Shown here: positions 1,726 to 31,746 of the stretch, piece after piece
Numbering within the stretch: the first letter of the stretch is position 1
Layout of the letters: every line of letters begins with the position of its first letter
IMG/VR virus record: IMGVR_UViG_3300020122_000665
Location: 1-64,000 of that record
DNA length: 64,000 nt
Source of the DNA: a virus
Strand: one strand, 5' to 3'
Position numbers and translations under genes: made by a program
The notes under the pieces: model-generated
Told to the model about the DNA's origin: nothing
Seen by the model: the letters and a program-made list of their open reading frames with translations, nothing else
Databases searched by the model: none

Positions 1726-1895
1726 GCGTCCTCCGGCTCTGCCACAGCCGCGCACTGGAGGGCGTTCTTCGCCGACTCGAGCTCGCGCATGGCCGCTGCG
1801 ATTTCATCGTTTGCGGCGTCGCGCGCCTTCTCGGCCGCCTTGTACCTCTTGTTCGCGACGCGCACCCGCGCGGCCGCCTCGGCGAGCTTGCTCAT
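1722..1895 (-). CDS. Small coiled-coil protein (57 aa, MSKLAEAAARVRVANKRYK...)
   Basis: ATGA overlaps with both neighbours; translated by hand. Confidence 0.55.
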   Translation of the reverse strand: MSKLAEAAARVRVANKRYKAAEKARDAANDEIAAAMRELESAKNALQCAAVAEPEDA

Positions 1896-3433
1896 GGCGC
1901 GCCCTTGTCGGCCTTCGCCTTGGCATCGGTCACCGCAGCCGCCTCGGCGCCGCCGACGTCGCCCGGCTTGCCGATCTCGACGGGAGGCGGCGGGATCGCC
2001 GCCTGCGTGATCTGCTTGTCGGAGGGAGCGTTCTTCTCGATGTCGCCGTCGATCTCCTGCCGCGCGTCCTCGGGGAGGTCGGGCATCTCGGCGCGATACA
2101 TCCGCTTCCGCTTCTCGATGTAGTAGCGGCGCGAGGGGATCTTCATGCCCTCGGTGACGAGCGCCGTCTCGGCGATCGCGTTCGCGTCGACGAGGTGGTA
2201 GGAGTCGCGGCCGCCGACGTGGAAGGTGATGTCGTCGCCGCGGCCCTTCGCGACCTTCTGCAGCGTGCGCTCCTCGGCGGCGGTCTCGATGCGGCCGTAC
2301 TCGCGGAGCACCACCTCGGTCGCGGCGGCGTCCTGCTCCTTCGACTCACCCGAGCGGCCGATCGCCGCGGCGTTGTTGTCGATGCCGCGCGCCATTTGCT
2401 GCGCGACGCGGTGCGCCTCGTCCTTCAGCCGGTCGAGCTCCTTCGTGATGATGTCGAACGGCGTCTGGCTCGGTCCCGGCCAGTCGAGCTTCTCGCCCTC
2501 GGCGAGCATCAGGTAGCGCCCGGTGCCGAGCTTCGGCGCCTTCCGCTTGTCCTTCATGCCGGAGAACACCGGCATCGTGAACGCCGAGCGCTTGAGCGCC
2601 CACGAGAGCGCGTTCTGCTGACGGAAGTGCTCGACCTGCGGCTCGCCGACGTGCTGCATCAGCCAGAGGTGAGGCGGCAGGCGCAGCTCGACGATGGGGC
2701 ACTCGCCCTGGATGTCCGCCGGAGCGTCCACCTCGGGGATGTCGTCGTCGTCGCCGATCTTCTTGGTGCCGGTGAAGACGACCTCCCACCGCTTGGGCGG
2801 CTCGTCGCGATGCCAGCGCGTCCACCGCAGGGTCGTCGTGGGCTCGTCGTCCTCGAAGTCCACCAGCTCGACGATGTGCTCGTGCTCGACGAGCCACAGG
2901 AAGGGCGCATCCTCGGGCGGCCCGTCGGTGGTATCGCGCTTCCAGTGAACGATGTTCTCCGTCGGGATCGCGACCAGCGTCGGCAGGCCGAGGCCGGCGG
3001 CGTCGCGATCACCGATGGTCATCCCCGGAGTCAGCCCGTCGGGGAAGTTCACCCGCCAGTACGCCGCACCCTTCGTGAGCGCCTCGGCGAAGCGCTTCGA
3101 CATGAAGGAGTCGAAGTCGGAGCCGTCCGCGTCGCAGCTCTCCTTGAACGTCTGGTAGACCTTGTCGAGCGGCGCTCCGCCCTTGAGCGAGATCTTTGAC
3201 GGCGACGTGAAGAGGTAGCCCTTGAAGTAGCCGACCATCGGGCCGGCGTAGTTCGTATAGTAGGCCTCGCGGCAGCGCCGCTCGTAGACCTCTTTGGGCT
3301 CGAACTCGTTTTGGACGAGGAACGTCTTGATGAGCTTGCGCACCGCGCGCCCGCCGGCGGCGAGGGCGGCGTACTCCTCGAGCACCTCGGGATCGAAGTC
3401 GGGGTGCTGCCGCTTGAGCGCGCGATACTTCAT
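1892..3433 (-). CDS. Phage portal protein (DUF4055-like)
   Basis: About 510 aa; N-terminal HPDF...EPKEVYERRCREAYYTNY pattern and SGESKEQD segment typical of this portal family; downstream of the terminase. Confidence 0.8.
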   Translation of the reverse strand: MKYRALKRQHPDFDPEVLEEYAALAAGGRAVRKLIKTFLVQNEFEPKEVYERRCREAYYTNYAGPMVGYFKGYLFTSPSKISLKGGAPLDKVYQTFKESCDADGSDFDSFMSKRFAEALTKGAAYWRVNFPDGLTPGMTIGDRDAAGLGLPTLVAIPTENIVHWKRDTTDGPPEDAPFLWLVEHEHIVELVDFEDDEPTTTLRWTRWHRDEPPKRWEVVFTGTKKIGDDDDIPEVDAPADIQGECPIVELRLPPHLWLMQHVGEPQVEHFRQQNALSWALKRSAFTMPVFSGMKDKRKAPKLGTGRYLMLAEGEKLDWPGPSQTPFDIITKELDRLKDEAHRVAQQMARGIDNNAAAIGRSGESKEQDAAATEVVLREYGRIETAAEERTLQKVAKGRGDDITFHVGGRDSYHLVDANAIAETALVTEGMKIPSRRYYIEKRKRMYRAEMPDLPEDARQEIDGDIEKNAPSDKQITQAAIPPPPVEIGKPGDVGGAEAAAVTDAKAKADKGAP

Positions 3434-3541
3434 CGAACGCTCCTCGAAGAGTTGTGCTCGGGCCGGCGGGAGCCTCACGCGCGGGGAGGAGGGACCGCTT
3501 GTGCGGTTCCCGCCGGCTCCAGTTCCTGGCGCTCGCGCTCT

Positions 3542-3913
3542 TCAGCGCGGGCAAATGATGTTGCGGTCGTTGTCGACGGTGCAGACCGTCGCCTCGCCGG
3601 ACTCGATGAGCTCCCGCCAGTTGCACGGGCCCCACGGGCAGAGGTCATCGTCGTCGAACGCGTGGTGCGCGGTCGCCGGCTCGTCGTCGAGCGGCGCGCC
3701 GGCGTCGCGGACCGTGTCGCCGATCTCGTCGAGAAACGCGCCCGCGGCGTAGCAGAGCGCCGCGTCGATCGTAACCTGCTCGACGGCCGGAACCGGCTGC
3801 GGCCACGGGTCGTCGCAGGCCTTCACGCCCACCATCGCGGCCGCGGCGAGGAGCAGCGTGCGCAGCGAAGGAAGGAACGGGTGCGGCGGTGCGGCAACCG
3901 GGATCATGGTCAT
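3542..3913 (-). CDS. Hypothetical exported or lipoprotein-like protein
   Basis: Hydrophobic LLLAAAAMVGVKAC segment; Cys-rich C-terminus; overlaps the upstream gene. Confidence 0.45.
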   Translation of the reverse strand: MTMIPVAAPPHPFLPSLRTLLLAAAAMVGVKACDDPWPQPVPAVEQVTIDAALCYAAGAFLDEIGDTVRDAGAPLDDEPATAHHAFDDDDLCPWGPCNWRELIESGEATVCTVDNDRNIICPR

Positions 3914-4104
3914 TTCCCGAAGAGCGTCACGTCGCCGTCGAGCGCCTCGAGCGAGGGCGACGGCCGGACGCGCCCGGTGGCGGTGCGGTCCCACGGGTCG
4001 GCGGTGTCGTCCGTCTCGCGGAGCGCTCGGAACTCGTGCTGCTCCGCACTCGCGTCGGCGAGCCGCTGGCGAGGATGACCACGCTCCGCGGAGTAGACGA
4101 TCAC
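3910..4104 (-). CDS. Small hypothetical protein sharing its N-terminus with 4539-5702
   Basis: MIVYSAERGHPRQRLADA versus MILYSAERGGPRQRLSDA. Confidence 0.55.
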   Translation of the reverse strand: MIVYSAERGHPRQRLADASAEQHEFRALRETDDTADPWDRTATGRVRPSPSLEALDGDVTLFGK

Positions 4105-4436
4105 GGGCGTCCGACCATCGACGCGAAGGCCTCGCGCGTGATCGGGGCGATATCCCGCATACGCCGAAGCACGCTATCGAACAGCGCTCGGCGACCGAGC
4201 GTCTCGGCGCGGCGCGCGCGCTTCGCCTCGGCCGCCTCGATTGCGAGCGAGGAGAAGTAGTCGCCCGCGCCGCCGCGCGCGCAGTGCGTCGCGCTGTCGG
4301 TGCCGATCGCCCCCGCCAGGTACGGCGATGGGAGCGGGGCGCGCTCGTTGAACGCTTCGAGCAGCGACCGCGTGGGGTGGTCGATGGCGACCGGGCCTCG
4401 CTTCGCCTTCCCGGCGCTGCGGTGGTGGTGCAGCAT
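4101..4436 (-). CDS. Hypothetical protein
   Basis: GGAGGAGG SD; coupled to the downstream gene. Confidence 0.55.
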   Translation of the reverse strand: MLHHHRSAGKAKRGPVAIDHPTRSLLEAFNERAPLPSPYLAGAIGTDSATHCARGGAGDYFSSLAIEAAEAKRARRAETLGRRALFDSVLRRMRDIAPITREAFASMVGRP

Positions 4437-4499
4437 GGTGAGCCTCCTCCAAGGCGCACGACAGAGGGCGCCCGCACTGGCGCACCCGTTGGCATTGGG

Positions 4500-4509
4500 G
4501 AGGTACAGC
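4500..4509 (-). promoter_or_regulatory. GCTGTACCTC motif, copy 1 of 7 (others at 5992, 6743, 9419, 19001, 20373 on minus; 28744 on plus)
   Basis: Exact 10-mer, always co-oriented with and 6-65 nt upstream of a gene start. Confidence 0.7.
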
Positions 4510-4538
4510 AGCGAACGCCGCGAGAGAGGGGGGAGGGG

Positions 4539-5702
4539 CTAGTCGTCGAAGCCGGCGGTGAGCAGCCGGAAGAACTCGCTCCGTCGCACGACGGCGTAGA
4601 CGCTGTCTAGCGCATAGCGGATGCGGCGCGCCGTGAACGATCCGAGCGCTGCGACCAGATCGCCGGCGAGCGGCGGCGCTGCGGCGCGCGCGGCCTGGCG
4701 CAACAGGCGGCGCGCATCGTGCGGGATGTCGAGCCGCGCCTCCGTCTCGAACTCGATTCCAGCAACCATCTGCCCCGGCAGTTGCACCGTCTCCCCGTTG
4801 AGCAGCGCCGCGTATTGCTCGTAGGTGCCAATGAATGGCTTCTCGCCGATCACAACTACGTGGTCGGGCAGCAACTCACCGCCGCCCGGGAGTCGCGGCG
4901 ACGTCTGCCGCTCGCGCTCGTCGCGCGCCGGATCCAGGTGAGCCAGCGTCACGCTCTCCTCCTCGGATACCCCACCGAACGCGATAGGAATCCTTCGGGG
5001 GTGACCGTTCCGGTTCCACTGCGGGCGCTCGATCACCGTCGCCTCGCGCAACCAGCGCTCGCCGAGGCGCGTCCACACGCCCGACGTCATCGTGACGTGC
5101 TTCTTGCAGCCGTCGCCGCCAGAGACGCGCTTCTCCTTGCACGTGCCGCTCGACGTCGGAGCGTAGCAGATGTCGTGCACCGCGCAGTTCCACTCGCCGT
5201 TGATGCGTGGCTTCTGGCAGAGCCCGCCTCCGGTGACGCCGGCGAAGCAGCGACCCGGCTTCCACTCCTCCTTCGACCGGCTCGTCACGAGCAGCTCGCG
5301 CACGTGCACCGTCCGCTCGTAGACCTGCGTGCCGATCGGCGTGTTGGTGATGAGCACGAGCGCGGCACCGAGCGGTGCCTGCTCCTCGGCTTCCATCCAC
5401 GCTTTGATGAAGAGCGCCTTGCGGATGTGCTCGCGATCGGCGGCCATCGCGCGCGCCCACTCCTGCGCGTCGCGGTTGTGGTTCGAGATCAACCCTTGCG
5501 AGAGCGCCTCGAGCATCCCGGCCTGGGCGCTGCGCGCGTGCGGGTCCTCGCGCTGCATCGCGTGCGCCTCGAGCAGCACGCGGCGGTAGGCGCTGGCCGT
5601 CTGGCGCCGCGCCGGCAGCTCGGCGCGCTGCGCGGGAGAGACCTTCGCGGCGTCGCTGAGCCGCTGGCGAGGACCGCCGCGCTCCGCGGAGTAGAGGATC
5701 AT
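4539..5702 (-). CDS. Hypothetical protein with two Cys/His zinc-binding-like repeats
   Basis: CFAGVTGGGLCQKP...CAVH and CYAPTSSGTCKEK...CKKH; start reassigned to ATG 5702 (ATGA overlap). Confidence 0.6.
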   Translation of the reverse strand: MILYSAERGGPRQRLSDAAKVSPAQRAELPARRQTASAYRRVLLEAHAMQREDPHARSAQAGMLEALSQGLISNHNRDAQEWARAMAADREHIRKALFIKAWMEAEEQAPLGAALVLITNTPIGTQVYERTVHVRELLVTSRSKEEWKPGRCFAGVTGGGLCQKPRINGEWNCAVHDICYAPTSSGTCKEKRVSGGDGCKKHVTMTSGVWTRLGERWLREATVIERPQWNRNGHPRRIPIAFGGVSEEESVTLAHLDPARDERERQTSPRLPGGGELLPDHVVVIGEKPFIGTYEQYAALLNGETVQLPGQMVAGIEFETEARLDIPHDARRLLRQAARAAAPPLAGDLVAALGSFTARRIRYALDSVYAVVRRSEFFRLLTAGFDD

Positions 5703-5965
5703 CGGAGCGCCTCCGCCTCGTCGAGGGCGACGTAGTGGTCGAAGATGCTGCGCGCCTTCACGACGTCGTTCCCCTTGTAGACGGGAGCGCCGTCGAGCAC
5801 CACGATCGCCCTGGCGTCGTCTGGCTCGTATCCGGGCGAGGTCCACGAAATCACAATCCGGTGCGGCGTCCGAGGGCACGCGGGGACGACCTGCGCCACC
5901 ATCGCAGCCTCGATGCCCGTCTCCCCGGCATCCGGGTTCAGATCTCCGGTCTGCGGCTTTTCCAT
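5699..5965 (-). CDS. Hypothetical protein
   Basis: GGAGGAGG SD before ATG 5965. Confidence 0.5.
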   Translation of the reverse strand: MEKPQTGDLNPDAGETGIEAAMVAQVVPACPRTPHRIVISWTSPGYEPDDARAIVVLDGAPVYKGNDVVKARSIFDHYVALDEAEALR

Positions 5966-6020
5966 GCAGCACCTCCTCCAGGTGTGGCAGGGAGGTACAG
6001 CAGCGACGATCTCGCGCGAG

Positions 6021-6467
6021 CTATTGGTTCCAGGGGTCCGTGTCGACCATCGCGCGCGCCATGTCGTCGAGCGCGCGACGCCAACGCTCGACATCAGTCG
6101 CCGCGCCCCGACCGAGCGACCGCCACCGGCGGTACAGGCGCCGCCAGATGGGGAGCATGAGGAAGACGCCGCACCCGACGAGCGCCGGGTAGCTGCGCGT
6201 CGCTAGGAAGTAGACGACCCACAGCGTCTCTTTGGCGAGGAGGTAGCGCGCGAGCCAGCGGTAGCAGTGGACAAGCTCCCCGTCGGTGCGCGCGCTGAAG
6301 TGAAGCTGGCGCTGCCTCTCGGCGAGCCGGTCAGCGACGCTCGCGTGGCCGAAGCTGAGCAGCACCGCCGCGGCGCCGACCCAGGCGATCGCCGTCGCGC
6401 GCGTGGCGACATTCACCGCGACGAGGATCGCGGCGACGACGGCCCACTCGAAGTGCCACGTCTTCAT
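6021..6467 (-). CDS. Membrane protein (3-4 TM segments)
   Basis: MKTWHFEWAVVAAILVAVNV... hydrophobic segments. Confidence 0.6.
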   Translation of the reverse strand: MKTWHFEWAVVAAILVAVNVATRATAIAWVGAAAVLLSFGHASVADRLAERQRQLHFSARTDGELVHCYRWLARYLLAKETLWVVYFLATRSYPALVGCGVFLMLPIWRRLYRRWRSLGRGAATDVERWRRALDDMARAMVDTDPWNQ

Positions 6468-6718
6468 CGCGCGGAGGCCCTCTCCACCGCCTTCGCGTTG
6501 ACGGCGTCGGCGAGCGCCGCGACCTTCCCCGCGCCGCACCGATACGCCTCCTCGATGACGTTGAACGCAGCGCCGAGCGGCGACGCGTTCCAGTTGATCT
6601 GCGCGCGCTGAAGGCCGGCGGAACCGGCGACCATCGCGATTCGATCGACCCACGAAGAACTTCGCTCGGGGTCGTCGGTGACGTGCAGCAGGAGTTCACA
6701 CAGCCGGCTTCGGTCCAT
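6464..6718 (-). CDS. Stand-alone effector-associated domain (EAD1-like) protein
   Basis: 84 aa helical protein; AGLQRAQINWNASPLGAAFNVIEEAYRCGAGKVAAL resembles the EAD1 pattern as I recall it; strong SD. Confidence 0.5.
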   Translation of the reverse strand: MDRSRLCELLLHVTDDPERSSSWVDRIAMVAGSAGLQRAQINWNASPLGAAFNVIEEAYRCGAGKVAALADAVNAKAVERASAR

Positions 6719-7034
6719 CGGGCACACCTCCTCCAATCACCGGAGGTACAGCCGCGGTCACCTCCTCACGACAGTCGAGGCAGAATCGCGTCCAGCGTCG
6801 GCGCGCGCCCGCGTCGAACCGGCGACCCGAGAATCGGAGCCGCGCGTGGTCGCAGTACGCGGGGTGGATCTGCACCATGCGCGCGCGCATCGCGCCGCAG
6901 CGCGCGCACTCCATTTGGTTGGTGTCGATGCCACGCGGCGCGACGAACACGTAGCGGTGGCCGCACGCCGCGCAGTGCGCACGCCCGGCGAACCACTTCG
7001 CCCGCCGATCGTCGAGGCTCGCGACGTCACTCAT
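6696..7034 (-). CDS. Zinc-ribbon protein
   Basis: CAAC, CARC and CLDC motifs. Confidence 0.55.
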   Translation of the reverse strand: MSDVASLDDRRAKWFAGRAHCAACGHRYVFVAPRGIDTNQMECARCGAMRARMVQIHPAYCDHARLRFSGRRFDAGARRRWTRFCLDCREEVTAAVPPVIGGGVPDGPKPAV

Positions 7035-7242
7035 GGAGCTATGCAATAGTGCAAGAGTGCATTGTCGAGCCGCCGATCCCGCGAGTTCACCCGAGGAGCG
7101 CCGACGCCACGAAGAGCGCCGCGGCGATGAGCAGCGCTACTCCGAGTCGCCGCGCCGCGCGGGCCGACGCGCGGTCGGGCTTCCCTTCGTCGATGAGCCG
7201 CAGTTTCGCCGTCGGAGAATCGTCGCTCATGATTCGCTCCTA

Positions 7243-8604
7243 TCAGACCCACCCGATGGGGTCTGTGCTGACGCCGCGCACGAGCGGCGGATCGCCGGCG
7301 CCGGTCATCGCGAGCGCGTGCGACCACAGGCGGTCGCCGTGGCCCGCAGCGGTGCGCGGCACCTCGAACACGATGTTTCCGGCCTTGGTGATGATGCGGC
7401 GGAGGGAGATCGTCTCGGCGCGCAGCGCCTCGCCCTCCTTGCCACGCGGCAGGCGGACGCGGCCGTCGCGATACCAGCGCATCAGGCGCGTCGCCATCTG
7501 CTCCTTCAGCTCGTTCGTGAACTTCATTGGGACGACCTCTTCGCCCCAGTCCTCGACGAGTTCCTGTCCGAGCTGCGTGCCCATTCCGGTGACGTCGGGG
7601 TAGAAGCGGTCCCACCCGAATTGCGCCCGCGCCTGGTCGAGAAACCTACGCTGCGCGCGGAAGGCGGTGCGCGGCCACACCATTGGCGGCAGCGTCCACG
7701 CGACGCCGCGGTAGATGACGACCACCGTGAGAGAGGACAGGTCGACCTCGTAGCCGACGTCGTAGCCGGCATAGACCTCCACGCCTTCCGGCCGGGCGGC
7801 GGGGTTGCCGATCCACTCGTAGACCTCGCGCGGCATCTCGCCCCGCCAGGAGCTGGCGCGGTTGACCATCGACGTCGGCAGGTACTGCAGGTTCGCGTCG
7901 AGCCAGGCGCAGCGATACCACTGGTCGAAGATGCGAGGGTCGCCGCCGGCGAGCGTCATGAGGTGGTCGAAGTCCACCGTCATGCCGTCGGCGATCATGT
8001 CGTCGATGGTGACGTGGTGCATCGACCAGCCGGCCGGGCCGATGCCGCGCTGAGCGTCCTTCGCCCACTCGTAGAAGACGCCCTGCGCGCCGTTCGGCGT
8101 CGAGAGAACGCGCAGCCGGTAATTGCTGCGCGTCGTCATCGCGAACGCGCCGTCGCGGATGCCCTCGGGGTCCTGATGGTAGTGGTACTCGTCGAGCCAC
8201 GTGTCGCCGTGCATCGAGCGCGCGGTGCGCGCGTTCGCGGCGAGCGCCACCACCTTCCCGCCGCGCCGCCACGCGACCTCCGACGTGTTGTTGGTGACGT
8301 AGTCGATCATCTCGACCATGCCGTAGGCGGCCAGCGTCTGGCAGTGGAGCCGCACCTGCTCGAGCACCTCGCTCGAGCGCTTCTCGTTCACCGAGAGCAC
8401 GAGCTGCGGCCGCTTCTCCATCGCGCCGAGGAGCGCGCCGGCGGCCGTCCCGTCAGAGAATCCTCCCTGCCGCGTCTTCACGAGGCAGGCGATGCGCGCG
8501 GGGTCGAGGATCCACCGCCGCTGCTTCGGCAGGAAGCAGCGCTGCAGCCAGCGACCGATGGGCGAGTACCCGCCCGGCGTGTCAGTGGGGCTGACCGGAA
8601 CCAT
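7243..8604 (-). CDS. terL: Terminase large subunit (Mu gp28-like family)
   Basis: Walker A-like KTRQGGFS, Walker B TWLDE, STPNG coupling motif, nuclease GYDVG and HGD. Confidence 0.92.
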   Translation of the reverse strand: MVPVSPTDTPGGYSPIGRWLQRCFLPKQRRWILDPARIACLVKTRQGGFSDGTAAGALLGAMEKRPQLVLSVNEKRSSEVLEQVRLHCQTLAAYGMVEMIDYVTNNTSEVAWRRGGKVVALAANARTARSMHGDTWLDEYHYHQDPEGIRDGAFAMTTRSNYRLRVLSTPNGAQGVFYEWAKDAQRGIGPAGWSMHHVTIDDMIADGMTVDFDHLMTLAGGDPRIFDQWYRCAWLDANLQYLPTSMVNRASSWRGEMPREVYEWIGNPAARPEGVEVYAGYDVGYEVDLSSLTVVVIYRGVAWTLPPMVWPRTAFRAQRRFLDQARAQFGWDRFYPDVTGMGTQLGQELVEDWGEEVVPMKFTNELKEQMATRLMRWYRDGRVRLPRGKEGEALRAETISLRRIITKAGNIVFEVPRTAAGHGDRLWSHALAMTGAGDPPLVRGVSTDPIGWV

Positions 8605-9412: not shown

Positions 9413-9628
9413 GCCTCGGAGGTACAGCGGGGCCCCCAGCCGCACGAGGCGGGCCGACCTATTACAGGGGGTGCTACGGCTTCTCTATTGGTGCCAGGTT
9501 CGCGGCGACAAGGACGAGAACCAGCAGCATCGTTGCGTTGAGGCCTACCGAAACAGCGCGCAGACCTGGCGCCGCGAGCGCCACGTTGCCGGCGAGGAAC
9601 GCGAGAAACAGAATGACGATCGCCCACA

Positions 9629-18964: not shown

Positions 18965-19037
18965 GTGCGTTCTCCCGTGTGAGGTGTTGCGTCTACGGGA
19001 GAGGTACAGCCGCGCGCGCTGTGCGGTGAGGGTCGCT

Positions 19038-20354: not shown

Positions 20355-20425
20355 CGGCCCCTCCTGGCGAATGAGGTACAGCGCGAGCGGACGTGCGATG
20401 ATGGGCGCCACAAGGGAGGTGCCGC

Positions 20426-28337: not shown

Positions 28338-28781
28338 TCCCGGCCCGCACGCGCCCGGCCCGCACGCGCTGCATCGCGAAGCTCGATCGCGCCGCGCCTC
28401 GCCCGACGGAGGTGACGCTCGACCGCGCCGCCGGGCTCTTCGTCGTCCGCCACGTCGGGCGGCGCCGTCGCTTCGAGCTCGAGATCGAGGTGGTCGCGCA
28501 GATGGTCGCCGAGCGCGTCGTGCACGCCGACCTCAAGAAAGCGCGCCGGGAGAAGGCGCTCGCCCGCGCCGCGCGGCGGAAGGGATCCTGATGCGCGCCC
28601 TGGTGCGTTGCCTCGCTCGCCTTGCCGGCGCGGCGTTGCTGCGCTCCGCGGGAGCGCCTGATCCGATACCGCTCCGTCTGGAGATCGTGCCGCGCGCGCG
28701 CCGCGCGCCCCGGATCCGGGCGGAGCAGCTCTCCCTCGATCTGGCTGTACCTCGAATCGACCGCTTGGAGGAGCGCTCCCG

Positions 28782-29495: not shown

Positions 29496-29706
29496 GACCG
29501 ATCTACTTCAGCGCATCGATCTCCATCCCCTGGTGGAAGCACAAGCGGAAACCGCTGTTTCACCACGAGCCGGCGAACGTCCTCCGCAGCGGGCTCACGA
29601 TGTCGCAGCCCTCGTCGCACATCCACGTCGGCCCCCTTCACATCGGAATCGTGTGGCGCGAGTCCGACGAGGCGAAGGCGAAGCGCCTCGTCGAGGCGGA
29701 AAGCCG

Positions 29707-31746
29707 ATGAAGTCGAAACCGAAGCGCGCGACGCGTCGGCCGCCGATGCTACGCCTGCACACCGAAGATCTGGTGATCGACAACTTCGCCGGCGGCGGCG
29801 GCGCCAGCCTCGGTATCGAGTGGGCGCTCGGCCGCTCGCCGGACATCGCGGTCAACCACGATCCCGAGGCGCTCGCGATGCACGCCGCCAACCACCCCGA
29901 CACGAAGCACCTCTGCGAGTCGGTGTGGGATGTCGACCCGCGGAAGGTGTGCGGCGACAAGCAAGTCGAGCTCGCGTGGTTCTCGCCAGATTGCACATAC
30001 CATTCAAAAGCCCGAGGCGGAAAGCCCTTCCGCGATCGCAACAAGGCGCGCCGCCGGCGCGGCCTCGCCTGGGTCGTCGTTCGATGGGCCGAGGCGAGGA
30101 AACCCCGGCTAATCATGCTCGAGAACGTCGAGGAGTTCGAGGATTGGGGGCCGCTCCTCGACGACGGCACGCCCGACAAGACTCGCGCCGGGTTCACCTT
30201 CCGTCGGTGGGTCGCGCGCCTCCGCAACCTCGGCTACGACGTCGACTGGCGCCAGCTCCGCGCGTGCGACTACGGCGCGCCGACGACGCGCAAGCGGCTC
30301 TTCCTGATCGCGCGCTGCGACGGGCTTCCGATCGTGTGGCCCGAGGCGACGCACGCCCCGCCGGCGGTCGCCGCGGCGAAGGGCCTCAAGCCCTACCGCA
30401 CCGCCGCCGAGTGCATCGACTGGTCGATCCCCTGCCCGTCGATCTTCCTCACCAACGCCGAGGGCAAGAAGATCGGCGTGAAGCGGCCGCTCTCCGACAA
30501 CACGCTGCGGCGCATCGCGCGAGGCATCAAGAAGTTCGTCCTCGACGCCAAGGACCCATTCATCGTCCCCGATGCCGACCGCCGGCCGAAAGCGATGGTT
30601 CCATTCATCGCGCCTGTTTCGCACACCGGCGTCCGACCGAGCGGCACCAGCGTCGACGCTCGCGTGCATTCGATCAACGAGCCACTCCCGACGGTCACCG
30701 GAGCGCGCCGCGGCGAGAAGGCGCTCGTGCAGCCATTCCTCACGCCGGTCAAGACGTGGGGCGGCGGCGGCAACGAGCCGCGCTCCATCAACGAGCCGAT
30801 GCGGACCACGACCACGTCGAAGCGTGGAGAGCACGCCATCGTCGCGCCGCTCCTCGCGCGCATCGGGCAAACCGGCGGAAACGGCGACTACTCGAACGAC
30901 GCGCGCACCCCGCTCACCACCGTCACCACAAAGGCGGAGCACCTCCTCATCGCGCCGACGCTGATCCAGACCTCCTACGGCGAGCGCAAGGGCCAGAAGC
31001 CGCGCACGCTCGACCTGCACGCGCCGCTCGGCACCGTCGTCGGGCAGGGAGTGAAGCACTCGGTCGTCTCCGCATTCCTGGCGAAGCACTACGGCGGCCC
31101 GGGCGTGGAGCGCATCACCAAGCAGCCGGCCGGGACGTCGATGGATGCGCCGGTCGACACCATCACACAGCGCGACCACCACACGGTCATCGAGGCGCAG
31201 CTCGAGCCCTGGCTCGACGACCACGACAACACGGACCCCGACGGGGCCGAATACGAGGGTGGATTCTTCGGGCCCACCATCGAAGCCTCGCATTTGGTCC
31301 ACCTGCGCGGTGGCGTCGACGACCACCCCAACACCGCGCAGGCCGTCGAGGAGCCGCTGCCGACGGTCACGGCGAACGGGAACCACATCGCCGAGGTCCG
31401 CGCGCTGCTGATCAAATACTACGGCACCGACCAGGACCCGCAGCTCGGCGAGCCGCTCCACACCGTCACCACCAAGGACCGCTTCGCGCTGATCGTGACG
31501 ATCCACGGCGTCGACTACGAGATCGTCGACATCGGAATGCGGATGCTCTCGCCGCGCGAGCTCTTCCGCGCGCAGGGCTTCCCCGACTCCTACGACATCG
31601 AGTCGGAGTGGGAAGGCGTGAAGCTCACCAAGACCTCGCAGGTCCGCATGTGCGGCAACGCGGTAAGCCCCGTCATGTCGGAGGCGCTGGCGAAGGCGAA
31701 CTACGTCCGTCGGATGGGCGATCTCGCCGCCGGATGCGTGTCCTGA
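29707..31746 (+). CDS. dcm: DNA (cytosine-5) methyltransferase
   Basis: DNFAGGGG, FSPDC, MLENV, DYGAPTTRKR, GNAV; long variable region with repeated EPLPTVT units. Confidence 0.92.
   Translation: MKSKPKRATRRPPMLRLHTEDLVIDNFAGGGGASLGIEWALGRSPDIAVNHDPEALAMHAANHPDTKHLCESVWDVDPRKVCGDKQVELAWFSPDCTYHSKARGGKPFRDRNKARRRRGLAWVVVRWAEARKPRLIMLENVEEFEDWGPLLDDGTPDKTRAGFTFRRWVARLRNLGYDVDWRQLRACDYGAPTTRKRLFLIARCDGLPIVWPEATHAPPAVAAAKGLKPYRTAAECIDWSIPCPSIFLTNAEGKKIGVKRPLSDNTLRRIARGIKKFVLDAKDPFIVPDADRRPKAMVPFIAPVSHTGVRPSGTSVDARVHSINEPLPTVTGARRGEKALVQPFLTPVKTWGGGGNEPRSINEPMRTTTTSKRGEHAIVAPLLARIGQTGGNGDYSNDARTPLTTVTTKAEHLLIAPTLIQTSYGERKGQKPRTLDLHAPLGTVVGQGVKHSVVSAFLAKHYGGPGVERITKQPAGTSMDAPVDTITQRDHHTVIEAQLEPWLDDHDNTDPDGAEYEGGFFGPTIEASHLVHLRGGVDDHPNTAQAVEEPLPTVTANGNHIAEVRALLIKYYGTDQDPQLGEPLHTVTTKDRFALIVTIHGVDYEIVDIGMRMLSPRELFRAQGFPDSYDIESEWEGVKLTKTSQVRMCGNAVSPVMSEALAKANYVRRMGDLAAGCVS

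Follow-up and report, generated by a model that had tools for sequence, protein, structure and literature searches.

Two reports by Kaur, Burroughs, Iyer and Aravind, of 2020 and 2021, introduced effector-associated domains (EADs), among them EAD1 (PF19955), EAD7 (PF19960) and EAD8 (PF19961) (PMC7159879, PMC8195603). In the sections of these two reports considered here, it is a computational prediction only that EADs of multicellular bacteria couple effectors to conflict systems centred on an NTPase (PMC7159879, PMC8195603), and the EADs are proposed to serve as homotypic coupling adaptors (PMC7159879). Nine of the 12 EADs are described there as helical, and parallels are drawn to Death-like domains (PMC7159879, PMC8195603). 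The hallmark given for them is that one copy sits on a core component (VMAP, iSTAND, GAP1 or Ubl), whose operon or genome holds further copies on effectors (PMC7159879). We found no direct test of the homotypic coupling of EADs in the literature, and no report there of phage proteins consisting of an EAD only. For CARD-based defence there is pCARD of Acinetobacter phage 133 (Wein et al., bioRxiv 2023), which, in the part of that preprint drawn on here, lowers both gasdermin cleavage and defence (PMC10312443). The same part cites poxvirus pyrin-only proteins as inhibitors of animal inflammasomes (PMC10312443). Here we analysed a stretch of viral DNA, called the window below, that comprises positions 1 to 64,000 of an IMG/VR virus record of 85,475 bases (IMGVR_UViG_3300020122_000665; estimated to be 84% complete, with about 69% guanine plus cytosine (GC)). 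It carries a gene for an 84-residue protein, which a first-pass annotation made from the letters alone had proposed to be a stand-alone EAD1-like protein and a candidate decoy against EAD-coupled conflict systems.

The gene and the signal ahead of it are:

6464 to 6718, minus strand: EAD-like gene, encoding an 84-residue, all-alpha, stand-alone protein (from its translation, codon-position GC, relatives, AlphaFold2 model and fold matches)
6727 to 6734, minus strand: Shine-Dalgarno (SD) sequence GGAGGAGG, 8 nt ahead of the ATG at 6718, read from the sequence

The frame is open from 6464 to 6736 on the minus strand. Its translation includes the exact peptide AGLQRAQINWNASPLGAAFNVIEEAYRCGAGKVAAL, and the 84 residues are counted from the ATG at 6718. 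An 84-residue open reading frame (ORF) with this peptide and an SD sequence of its own had been described in the first-pass annotation, and the translation, GGAGGAGG and the start codon at 6718 bear this out. The stop codon of the gene, TGA (6466 to 6464), overlaps the ATG of the next gene (6467 to 6465), which encodes a membrane protein, and the two form an ATGA at 6467 to 6464 (minus strand). The GC fractions at the three codon positions were 0.68, 0.53 and 0.84, and the same pattern was seen in the terminase and portal genes. The phage context was confirmed as well, as the window is part of a virus record of IMG/VR and the gene lies between those for the large terminase subunit (TerL) and the portal protein. 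The 84-residue ORF is a real phage gene. We also considered a fusion or frameshift that would join it to the zinc-ribbon gene upstream. This was rejected for now: the EAD-like gene has its own SD sequence and ATG, the frames of the two genes differ, and the relatives all stand alone.

Relatives were sought in an exhaustive HMMER search of 1.84 billion protein representatives at E≤0.001, which yielded 17 proteins, namely the window protein and 16 others. One of these, P0014 (456 residues with four repeats, E 4.2e-4), was omitted from the alignments as a probable repeat artefact. The remaining 15 were 71-97 residues long, with E values from 1.1e-5 to 6.6e-4, and all were stand-alone. The aligned 16 rows had no internal gaps across the core and five invariant columns (W23, R26, W43, P47 and L69), and the common signature of the family was W..RIA..A..AG[LI]....INWN.SP. 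The 10 relatives that were looked up came from short metagenome contigs and were annotated as 'hypothetical protein' or had no name. A word-index protein search at near lengths recovered the window protein alone. With the family profile, the search at near lengths gave six proteins, all among those already known, and the search for longer forms gave none in 8000 scored candidates, which is weak evidence. The claim that the protein is stand-alone therefore held, because all 15 relatives were small and longer forms were not found.

Searches of phage, plasmid, IMG/VR and GTDB collections returned no close relatives of the phage or the gene. In tblastn at E≤1, neither the 50,697 phage records nor the PLSDB plasmids matched the window protein, and P0006, one of the 15 relatives, had a single chance-level match (E 5) on plasmids. 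Neither TerL nor subsets of the EAD-like family had a match in the IMG/VR and GTDB genomes. IMG/VR contained no relative of the window protein or of the zinc-ribbon protein, and the degenerate pattern W..RI...INWN.[SA]P occurred 0 times in it. A metagenome scan revealed three further loci with family members, on contigs of 1.0-2.0 kb. Their six neighbouring ORFs matched neither a PHROG at E≤0.01 nor, above chance, a Pfam family, and no neighbour was conserved across all four loci. On one of these contigs (L004, 2 kb, from a metagenome), at 215 to 741, P0006 starts 18 nt after a 90-residue ORF that has two hydrophobic stretches, as judged from its translation.

A second copy of the family seemed to be present in the window at 30595 to 30741 (minus strand, E 0.024). 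It was rejected as spurious, lying antisense to a methyltransferase gene, and no other copy was found in the phage record. The ORF in whose antisense frame this spurious profile match fell (29533 to 31746, plus strand, 737 residues) contains the strings DNFAGGGGAS, ENV and QGFP, which we take to be motifs of C5 DNA methyltransferases.

Comparison of the window protein with known families gave one chance-level match in PHROGs (E 0.21), two chance-level matches in NCBIfam (FlhF and TraC) and none in PADLOC. No enzymatic or catalytic family was found for it in Pfam, PHROGs, NCBIfam or PADLOC. When the 16 family members were scanned at E≤1 against 24,736 Pfam models, five weak hits were obtained in the whole set, and EAD1 was the only family touched collinearly. 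Residues 2-71 of P0006 aligned with positions 2-68 of the 90 positions of the EAD1 profile, with E 0.024 and 15.5 bits, the gathering cut-off of PF19955 being 24.2 bits. By our arithmetic, the chance that one of five hits falls on EAD1 is about 2 in 10,000. At the level of sequence, the hit would fit a very remote relationship. None of the 16 members reached a CARD, Death or bDLD family of Pfam at E≤1, and the best match of the family profile among PDB sequences was unrelated (E 0.68). PF19955 had no match in the phage record, and the EAD architecture of a core copy with effector copies was not found there. On 10 cyanobacterial plasmids (about 3.9 Mb) PF19955 was found in 0 of 10, which says little, as the controls were equally silent.

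AlphaFold2 gave a predicted local distance difference test (pLDDT) score of 62.3 for the window protein alone; with the 16-row alignment the score was 95.9, with a predicted template modelling score (pTM) of 0.86. The model is helical, as had been claimed, with helices at residues 3-14, 23-33, 47-61 and 63-83. We compared it with 48,161 representative chains by VIA-align, which is independent of Foldseek, and considered the best 50 rows. The first was a bacterial death-like domain of Azospirillum, 8SS1 (Z 7.2, root-mean-square deviation (rmsd) 3.0, 72 residues), and the second a CARD, 9FRR (Z 6.8, rmsd 3.4, 70 residues); 9CS7 had Z 7.2 and rmsd 2.9 over 72 residues. The CARD/Death matches span the whole model, with 70-78 of its 84 residues aligned at Z 7.2, 6.8 and 6.0, and the identity was 11-12% for 8SS1, 9CS7 and 9FRR. 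By title, 17 of the best 50 rows were CARD/Death chains, six of them within the top ten. The list also held two CENP-N rows and an Apaf-1 row that aligned over the N-terminal region; the matched regions are presumably pyrin-like in CENP-N and a CARD in Apaf-1. After realignment of the 249 best chains of Foldseek, the top eight were six CARD/Death chains and two of CENP-N, and from there on Z was at most 4.2.

A second model was available in the ESM Atlas, whose own prediction for the exact window sequence (one family member) was used for a search that returned 10 rows, with predicted models on both sides. Rows 1 to 5 were, in order, Trypsin_2 with EAD1 (template modelling (TM) score 0.75), EAD1 only (0.70), EAD7 (0.67), GAP1-N1 with EAD1 (0.70), and EAD7/EAD8/EAD1 (0.63). 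The alignments at these TM scores of 0.63-0.75 covered 68-71 residues. Feature searches in the ESM Atlas gave no usable match. Since two models and two libraries converge, the guess about the fold is supported at the structural level, and we consider that the window protein very probably has an EAD1/CARD-like fold. At this level, and by structure only, the label 'EAD1-like' of the first-pass annotation stands, resting on the EAD1, EAD7 and EAD8 clusters of the ESM Atlas and on the CARD and Death-like matches among solved structures. That annotation had named the lack of any profile or structural match as the result that would overturn it; structural matches were found. On the basis of the models, we class the protein as EAD1/CARD-like in fold and assign it to a new family of stand-alone proteins that escapes Pfam, and not to Pfam EAD1 itself. 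Direct results of the analysis are the gene and its family, a model of high confidence and the resemblance in fold; common descent with EAD1 is suggested by them.

What might such a protein do? We give a probability of about 35% to the reading that it is a decoy against an EAD- or Death-type conflict system of the host. This is the likeliest role because of the analogy with pCARD and because Death-fold domains and, as proposed, EADs bind their own kind. The EAD-like protein would be expressed from a two-gene cassette that lies between terminase and portal, within an accessory island made up of orphan genes. During infection it would dock on the EAD/Death-type adaptor surface of an NTPase-centred conflict system of the host and, being free of an effector, would block the recruitment of effectors or the assembly of the system as a dominant negative. 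By the same analogy, we infer that it may bind a host adaptor and inhibit the system.

Several observations weigh against a decoy. None of the 15 relatives is fused to an effector or a core component, and the EAD-type architecture was never seen in the family. The three other loci are short contigs without phage marker genes, and the coupling of the gene to that of the membrane protein suggests that its partner may be encoded by the phage and not be a host adaptor. In sequence, the profile check against the EAD families of Pfam that had been proposed with the annotation turned out negative. The window protein had 0 families at E≤10, and EAD1 was touched by only one of the 16 members, under the cut-off, which leaves the family outside Pfam EAD1. 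In structure, DSSP assigned the four long helices and a 3-residue turn at 38-40, with no clear six-helix bundle. Foldseek found nothing at E≤0.001 in PDB or among the viral models of BFVD, and a Z of 7.2 is under the level at which VIA-align advises trusting a helical-bundle match, so that alone it is only a hint.

All genes around the EAD-like gene are on the minus strand. Those that bear on its setting are:

1892 to 3478, minus strand: portal protein (PHROG 145, E 5e-29; Pfam DUF4055)
4539 to 5702, minus strand: gene for a 387-residue protein, coupled by ATGA to the 88-residue gene
5699 to 5965, minus strand: gene for an 88-residue protein, with the ATGA overlap at 5699 to 5702 with the 387-residue gene
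6021 to 6467, minus strand: basic membrane protein of 148 residues, isoelectric point (pI) 10.3, hydrophobic at about residues 6-22, 24-44 and 87-105 and charged in its C-terminal tail
6696 to 7046, minus strand: Cys-rich zinc-ribbon-like protein of 116 residues (Pfam Zn_ribbon_8, E 0.0032, below the cut-off; no PHROG)
7243 to 8604, minus strand: TerL (Pfam Terminase_6N and Terminase_6C)

The best tblastn matches of TerL were annotated phage terminases from proteobacterial and cyanobacterial phages, including Pseudomonas phage B3, at 25-29% identity. These relatives all come from Gram-negative hosts, which, judged from sequence, would be only a hint to the host of the phage. Between TerL and the portal gene, at 3480 to 7240 (minus strand), there are about 3.7 kb of small orphan genes. 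Besides the EAD-like gene, six genes of this island were tested and none was above threshold in Pfam, PHROGs or PADLOC. The stretch looks like an accessory or moron island at an unusual place. The zinc-ribbon-like and EAD-like genes, which are in different frames, share 23 nt, the end of the former and the start of the latter. The 148-residue membrane protein belongs to no family of Pfam, PHROGs or PADLOC. A complex prediction for it with the family alignment scored 0.00, which is no evidence either way. In the same island, the genes at 3910 to 4104 and 4539 to 5702 (both minus strand) share the N-terminus MI[VL]YSAERG.PRQRL.DA, with 57% identity over 35 residues (E 9e-9), and then diverge completely. 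Their common N-terminus may be a leader or targeting module that both carry, or the trace of a partial duplication.

The first-pass annotation had also assigned a promoter motif to the EAD-like gene. This is a repeated 10-mer, GCTGTACCTC, of which two copies are near the gene:

6743 to 6752, minus strand: one of the seven copies of GCTGTACCTC, 24 nt upstream of the ATG at 6718; the 'promoter motif' of the annotation
5992 to 6001, minus strand: next copy of GCTGTACCTC, just beyond the membrane-protein gene

Exact copies were found at 4500-4509, 5992-6001, 6743-6752, 9419-9428, 19001-19010 and 20373-20382 (all on the minus strand) and at 28744-28753 (plus strand). Seven copies in the window compare with 0.08 expected, and none of 100 shuffles reached seven. 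Every copy (7/7) is upstream of some gene start, and the copies at 6743-6752 and 5992-6001 bracket the EAD-like and membrane-protein genes as a two-gene cassette. A scan of 5600-7400 for the sigma-70 consensus gave 0 sites. We also obtained minimum-energy folds for six of the seven leaders, and in five of these six the purine-rich SD tract is paired with CCUC(C) from the motif. For the copy at 6743-6752 the predicted pairing is UACCUCC with GGAGGUG. Only one of the six, the leader at 5992, was more stable than all of its 200 shuffles. Pairing with the SD tract is weak evidence, as any CCUCC will complement a GGAGG. Of the 'promoter motif', the repeated 10-mer upstream of gene starts stood, and a promoter role is one possibility, given the empty sigma-70 scan and the ability of CCUC(C) to pair with the SD tract. 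GCTGTACCTC may serve the phage as a promoter element, may switch translation as an anti-SD element, or may do both.

Long spurious frames are common in high-GC DNA, and four other ORFs of at least 69 residues overlap the EAD-like stretch. The ORF might accordingly be no gene at all and only a chance open frame in DNA of 69% GC. This explanation is close to refuted, however, by the homologous relatives, by the codon-position GC that matches a coding frame, by the presence of the SD sequence and the ATGA coupling, and by the rise in pLDDT from 62 to 96 once the relatives joined the alignment. A chance frame in high-GC DNA is ruled out because the relatives occur under different sequence compositions. 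On L004, the relative lies among ORFs with a high content of Lys, Asn and Ile, a sign of AT-rich DNA (the GC content being deduced from this composition). A more serious explanation, which we regard as possible but doubtful, accepts the gene and takes its fold for a generic small helical bundle, with a role unconnected to EAD or Death-like systems: the protein might assist packaging or assembly, act as a small regulator or bind a different host protein. Neither the sequence matches nor the Foldseek matches are significant, and the Z of 7.2 is of a size that, according to VIA-align, models lacking true relatives often reach. In the same VIA-align list, SAP, KIX, FAN1 and designed bundles appeared at Z 5-6. 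The place of the gene between terminase and portal also speaks for such a role, as does the conserved INWN.SP, which is absent from the EAD1 and bDLD3 features described in the part of PMC8195603 used here. Yet two independent models and two independent libraries reached one superfamily, EAD1 was the sole Pfam family of the 24,736 to be touched collinearly, at the small chance given above, and Death-fold chains headed the list before the scores dropped.

It is also conceivable that the EAD-like protein and the membrane protein form a two-part module owned by the phage, which would serve in lysis timing, in superinfection exclusion or as an abortive-infection moron. The EAD-like domain would then act in the cytoplasm as the subunit through which the membrane protein docks or is regulated, or would connect that protein to death effectors of the host, so that the outcome would be co-option and not inhibition. 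The ATGA overlap with the gene for this basic 148-residue protein (pI 10.3, 3-4 hydrophobic segments, charged tail) favors such a module, and copies of GCTGTACCTC flank the pair of genes. A small hydrophobic neighbour is present in two of the four loci, those of the window and L004. There is also a gene transfer agent that co-opts a CARD-NLR-like system for lysis, according to the portion of PMC13236601 on which we rely. However, the two hydrophobic neighbours are unrelated, as BLASTP gave no alignment between the 90-residue ORF of L004 and the membrane protein at E≤100, and no neighbour is conserved across the four loci. We hold a module of this kind to be unlikely.

If the EAD-like protein is a decoy, a natural adaptor-only protein of phages would be a ready-made probe and inhibitor of EAD-coupled systems. 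It would also extend the Death-fold decoys of phages from one characterised case, pCARD, to a second branch of adaptors. Such proteins can escape Pfam and be detectable by structure only, and consequently EAD-like decoys of phages may be under-counted. A broader proposal, speculative and somewhat unlikely, is that the 84-residue protein and its 15 relatives represent a distinct mobile class of adaptor-only EAD/Death-fold proteins that is invisible to Pfam. Through such proteins phages would plug into the EAD-wired hubs of suicide and immunity in their hosts and would either silence these or, jointly with the co-translated membrane protein, seize the death signal for lysis or exclusion. For the 'EAD principle' of homotypic coupling, this would be a first point of access by experiment.

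Among known systems, EAD1 resembles the window protein in being small (about 85-90 residues), non-catalytic and all-alpha. The nearest structures in the ESM Atlas contain it or its relatives EAD7 and EAD8, and P0006 aligns end to end with its profile. The window protein differs from EAD1 in having no Pfam hit at all, that of P0006 being under the cut-off, in standing always alone, in being encoded by a phage and in having its own signature, W..RIA ... AG[LI]....INWN.SP. For bDLD3, the part of PMC8195603 used here lists as conserved a Trp in each of helices 2 and 4, with an RxD that opens helix 6. On inspection, these features did not recur in the family: W23 opens helix 2, W43 precedes the helix at 47-61, and the last helix has no conserved RxD. 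The best solved matches to the window model, 8SS1, 9CS7 and 9FRR, belong to bacterial gasdermin or CARD-NLR-like defence; their domains are N-terminal in proteases or NLR-like proteins, whereas the window model consists of four long helices and a short turn.

Cellular CARD-only proteins are adaptor-only inhibitors of inflammasomes. The animal adaptor-only inhibitors follow the logic proposed here, in which an adaptor free of an effector competes for homotypic interactions; they belong to eukaryotic systems, and their likeness to the window protein is at the level of the fold only. pCARD is different in several respects. It has 141 residues, adjoins rIIAB and, in the part of the preprint used here, was shown to inhibit a gasdermin system (PMC10312443). 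The window protein has 84 residues, is encoded between terminase and portal and is coupled to a membrane protein, and a role like that of pCARD would be assigned to it by analogy. What the two proteins have in common, as far as that part of the preprint describes pCARD, is that each is a lone adaptor domain of the Death-fold type encoded by a phage, and that each was recognised by its AlphaFold2 model and not by its sequence.

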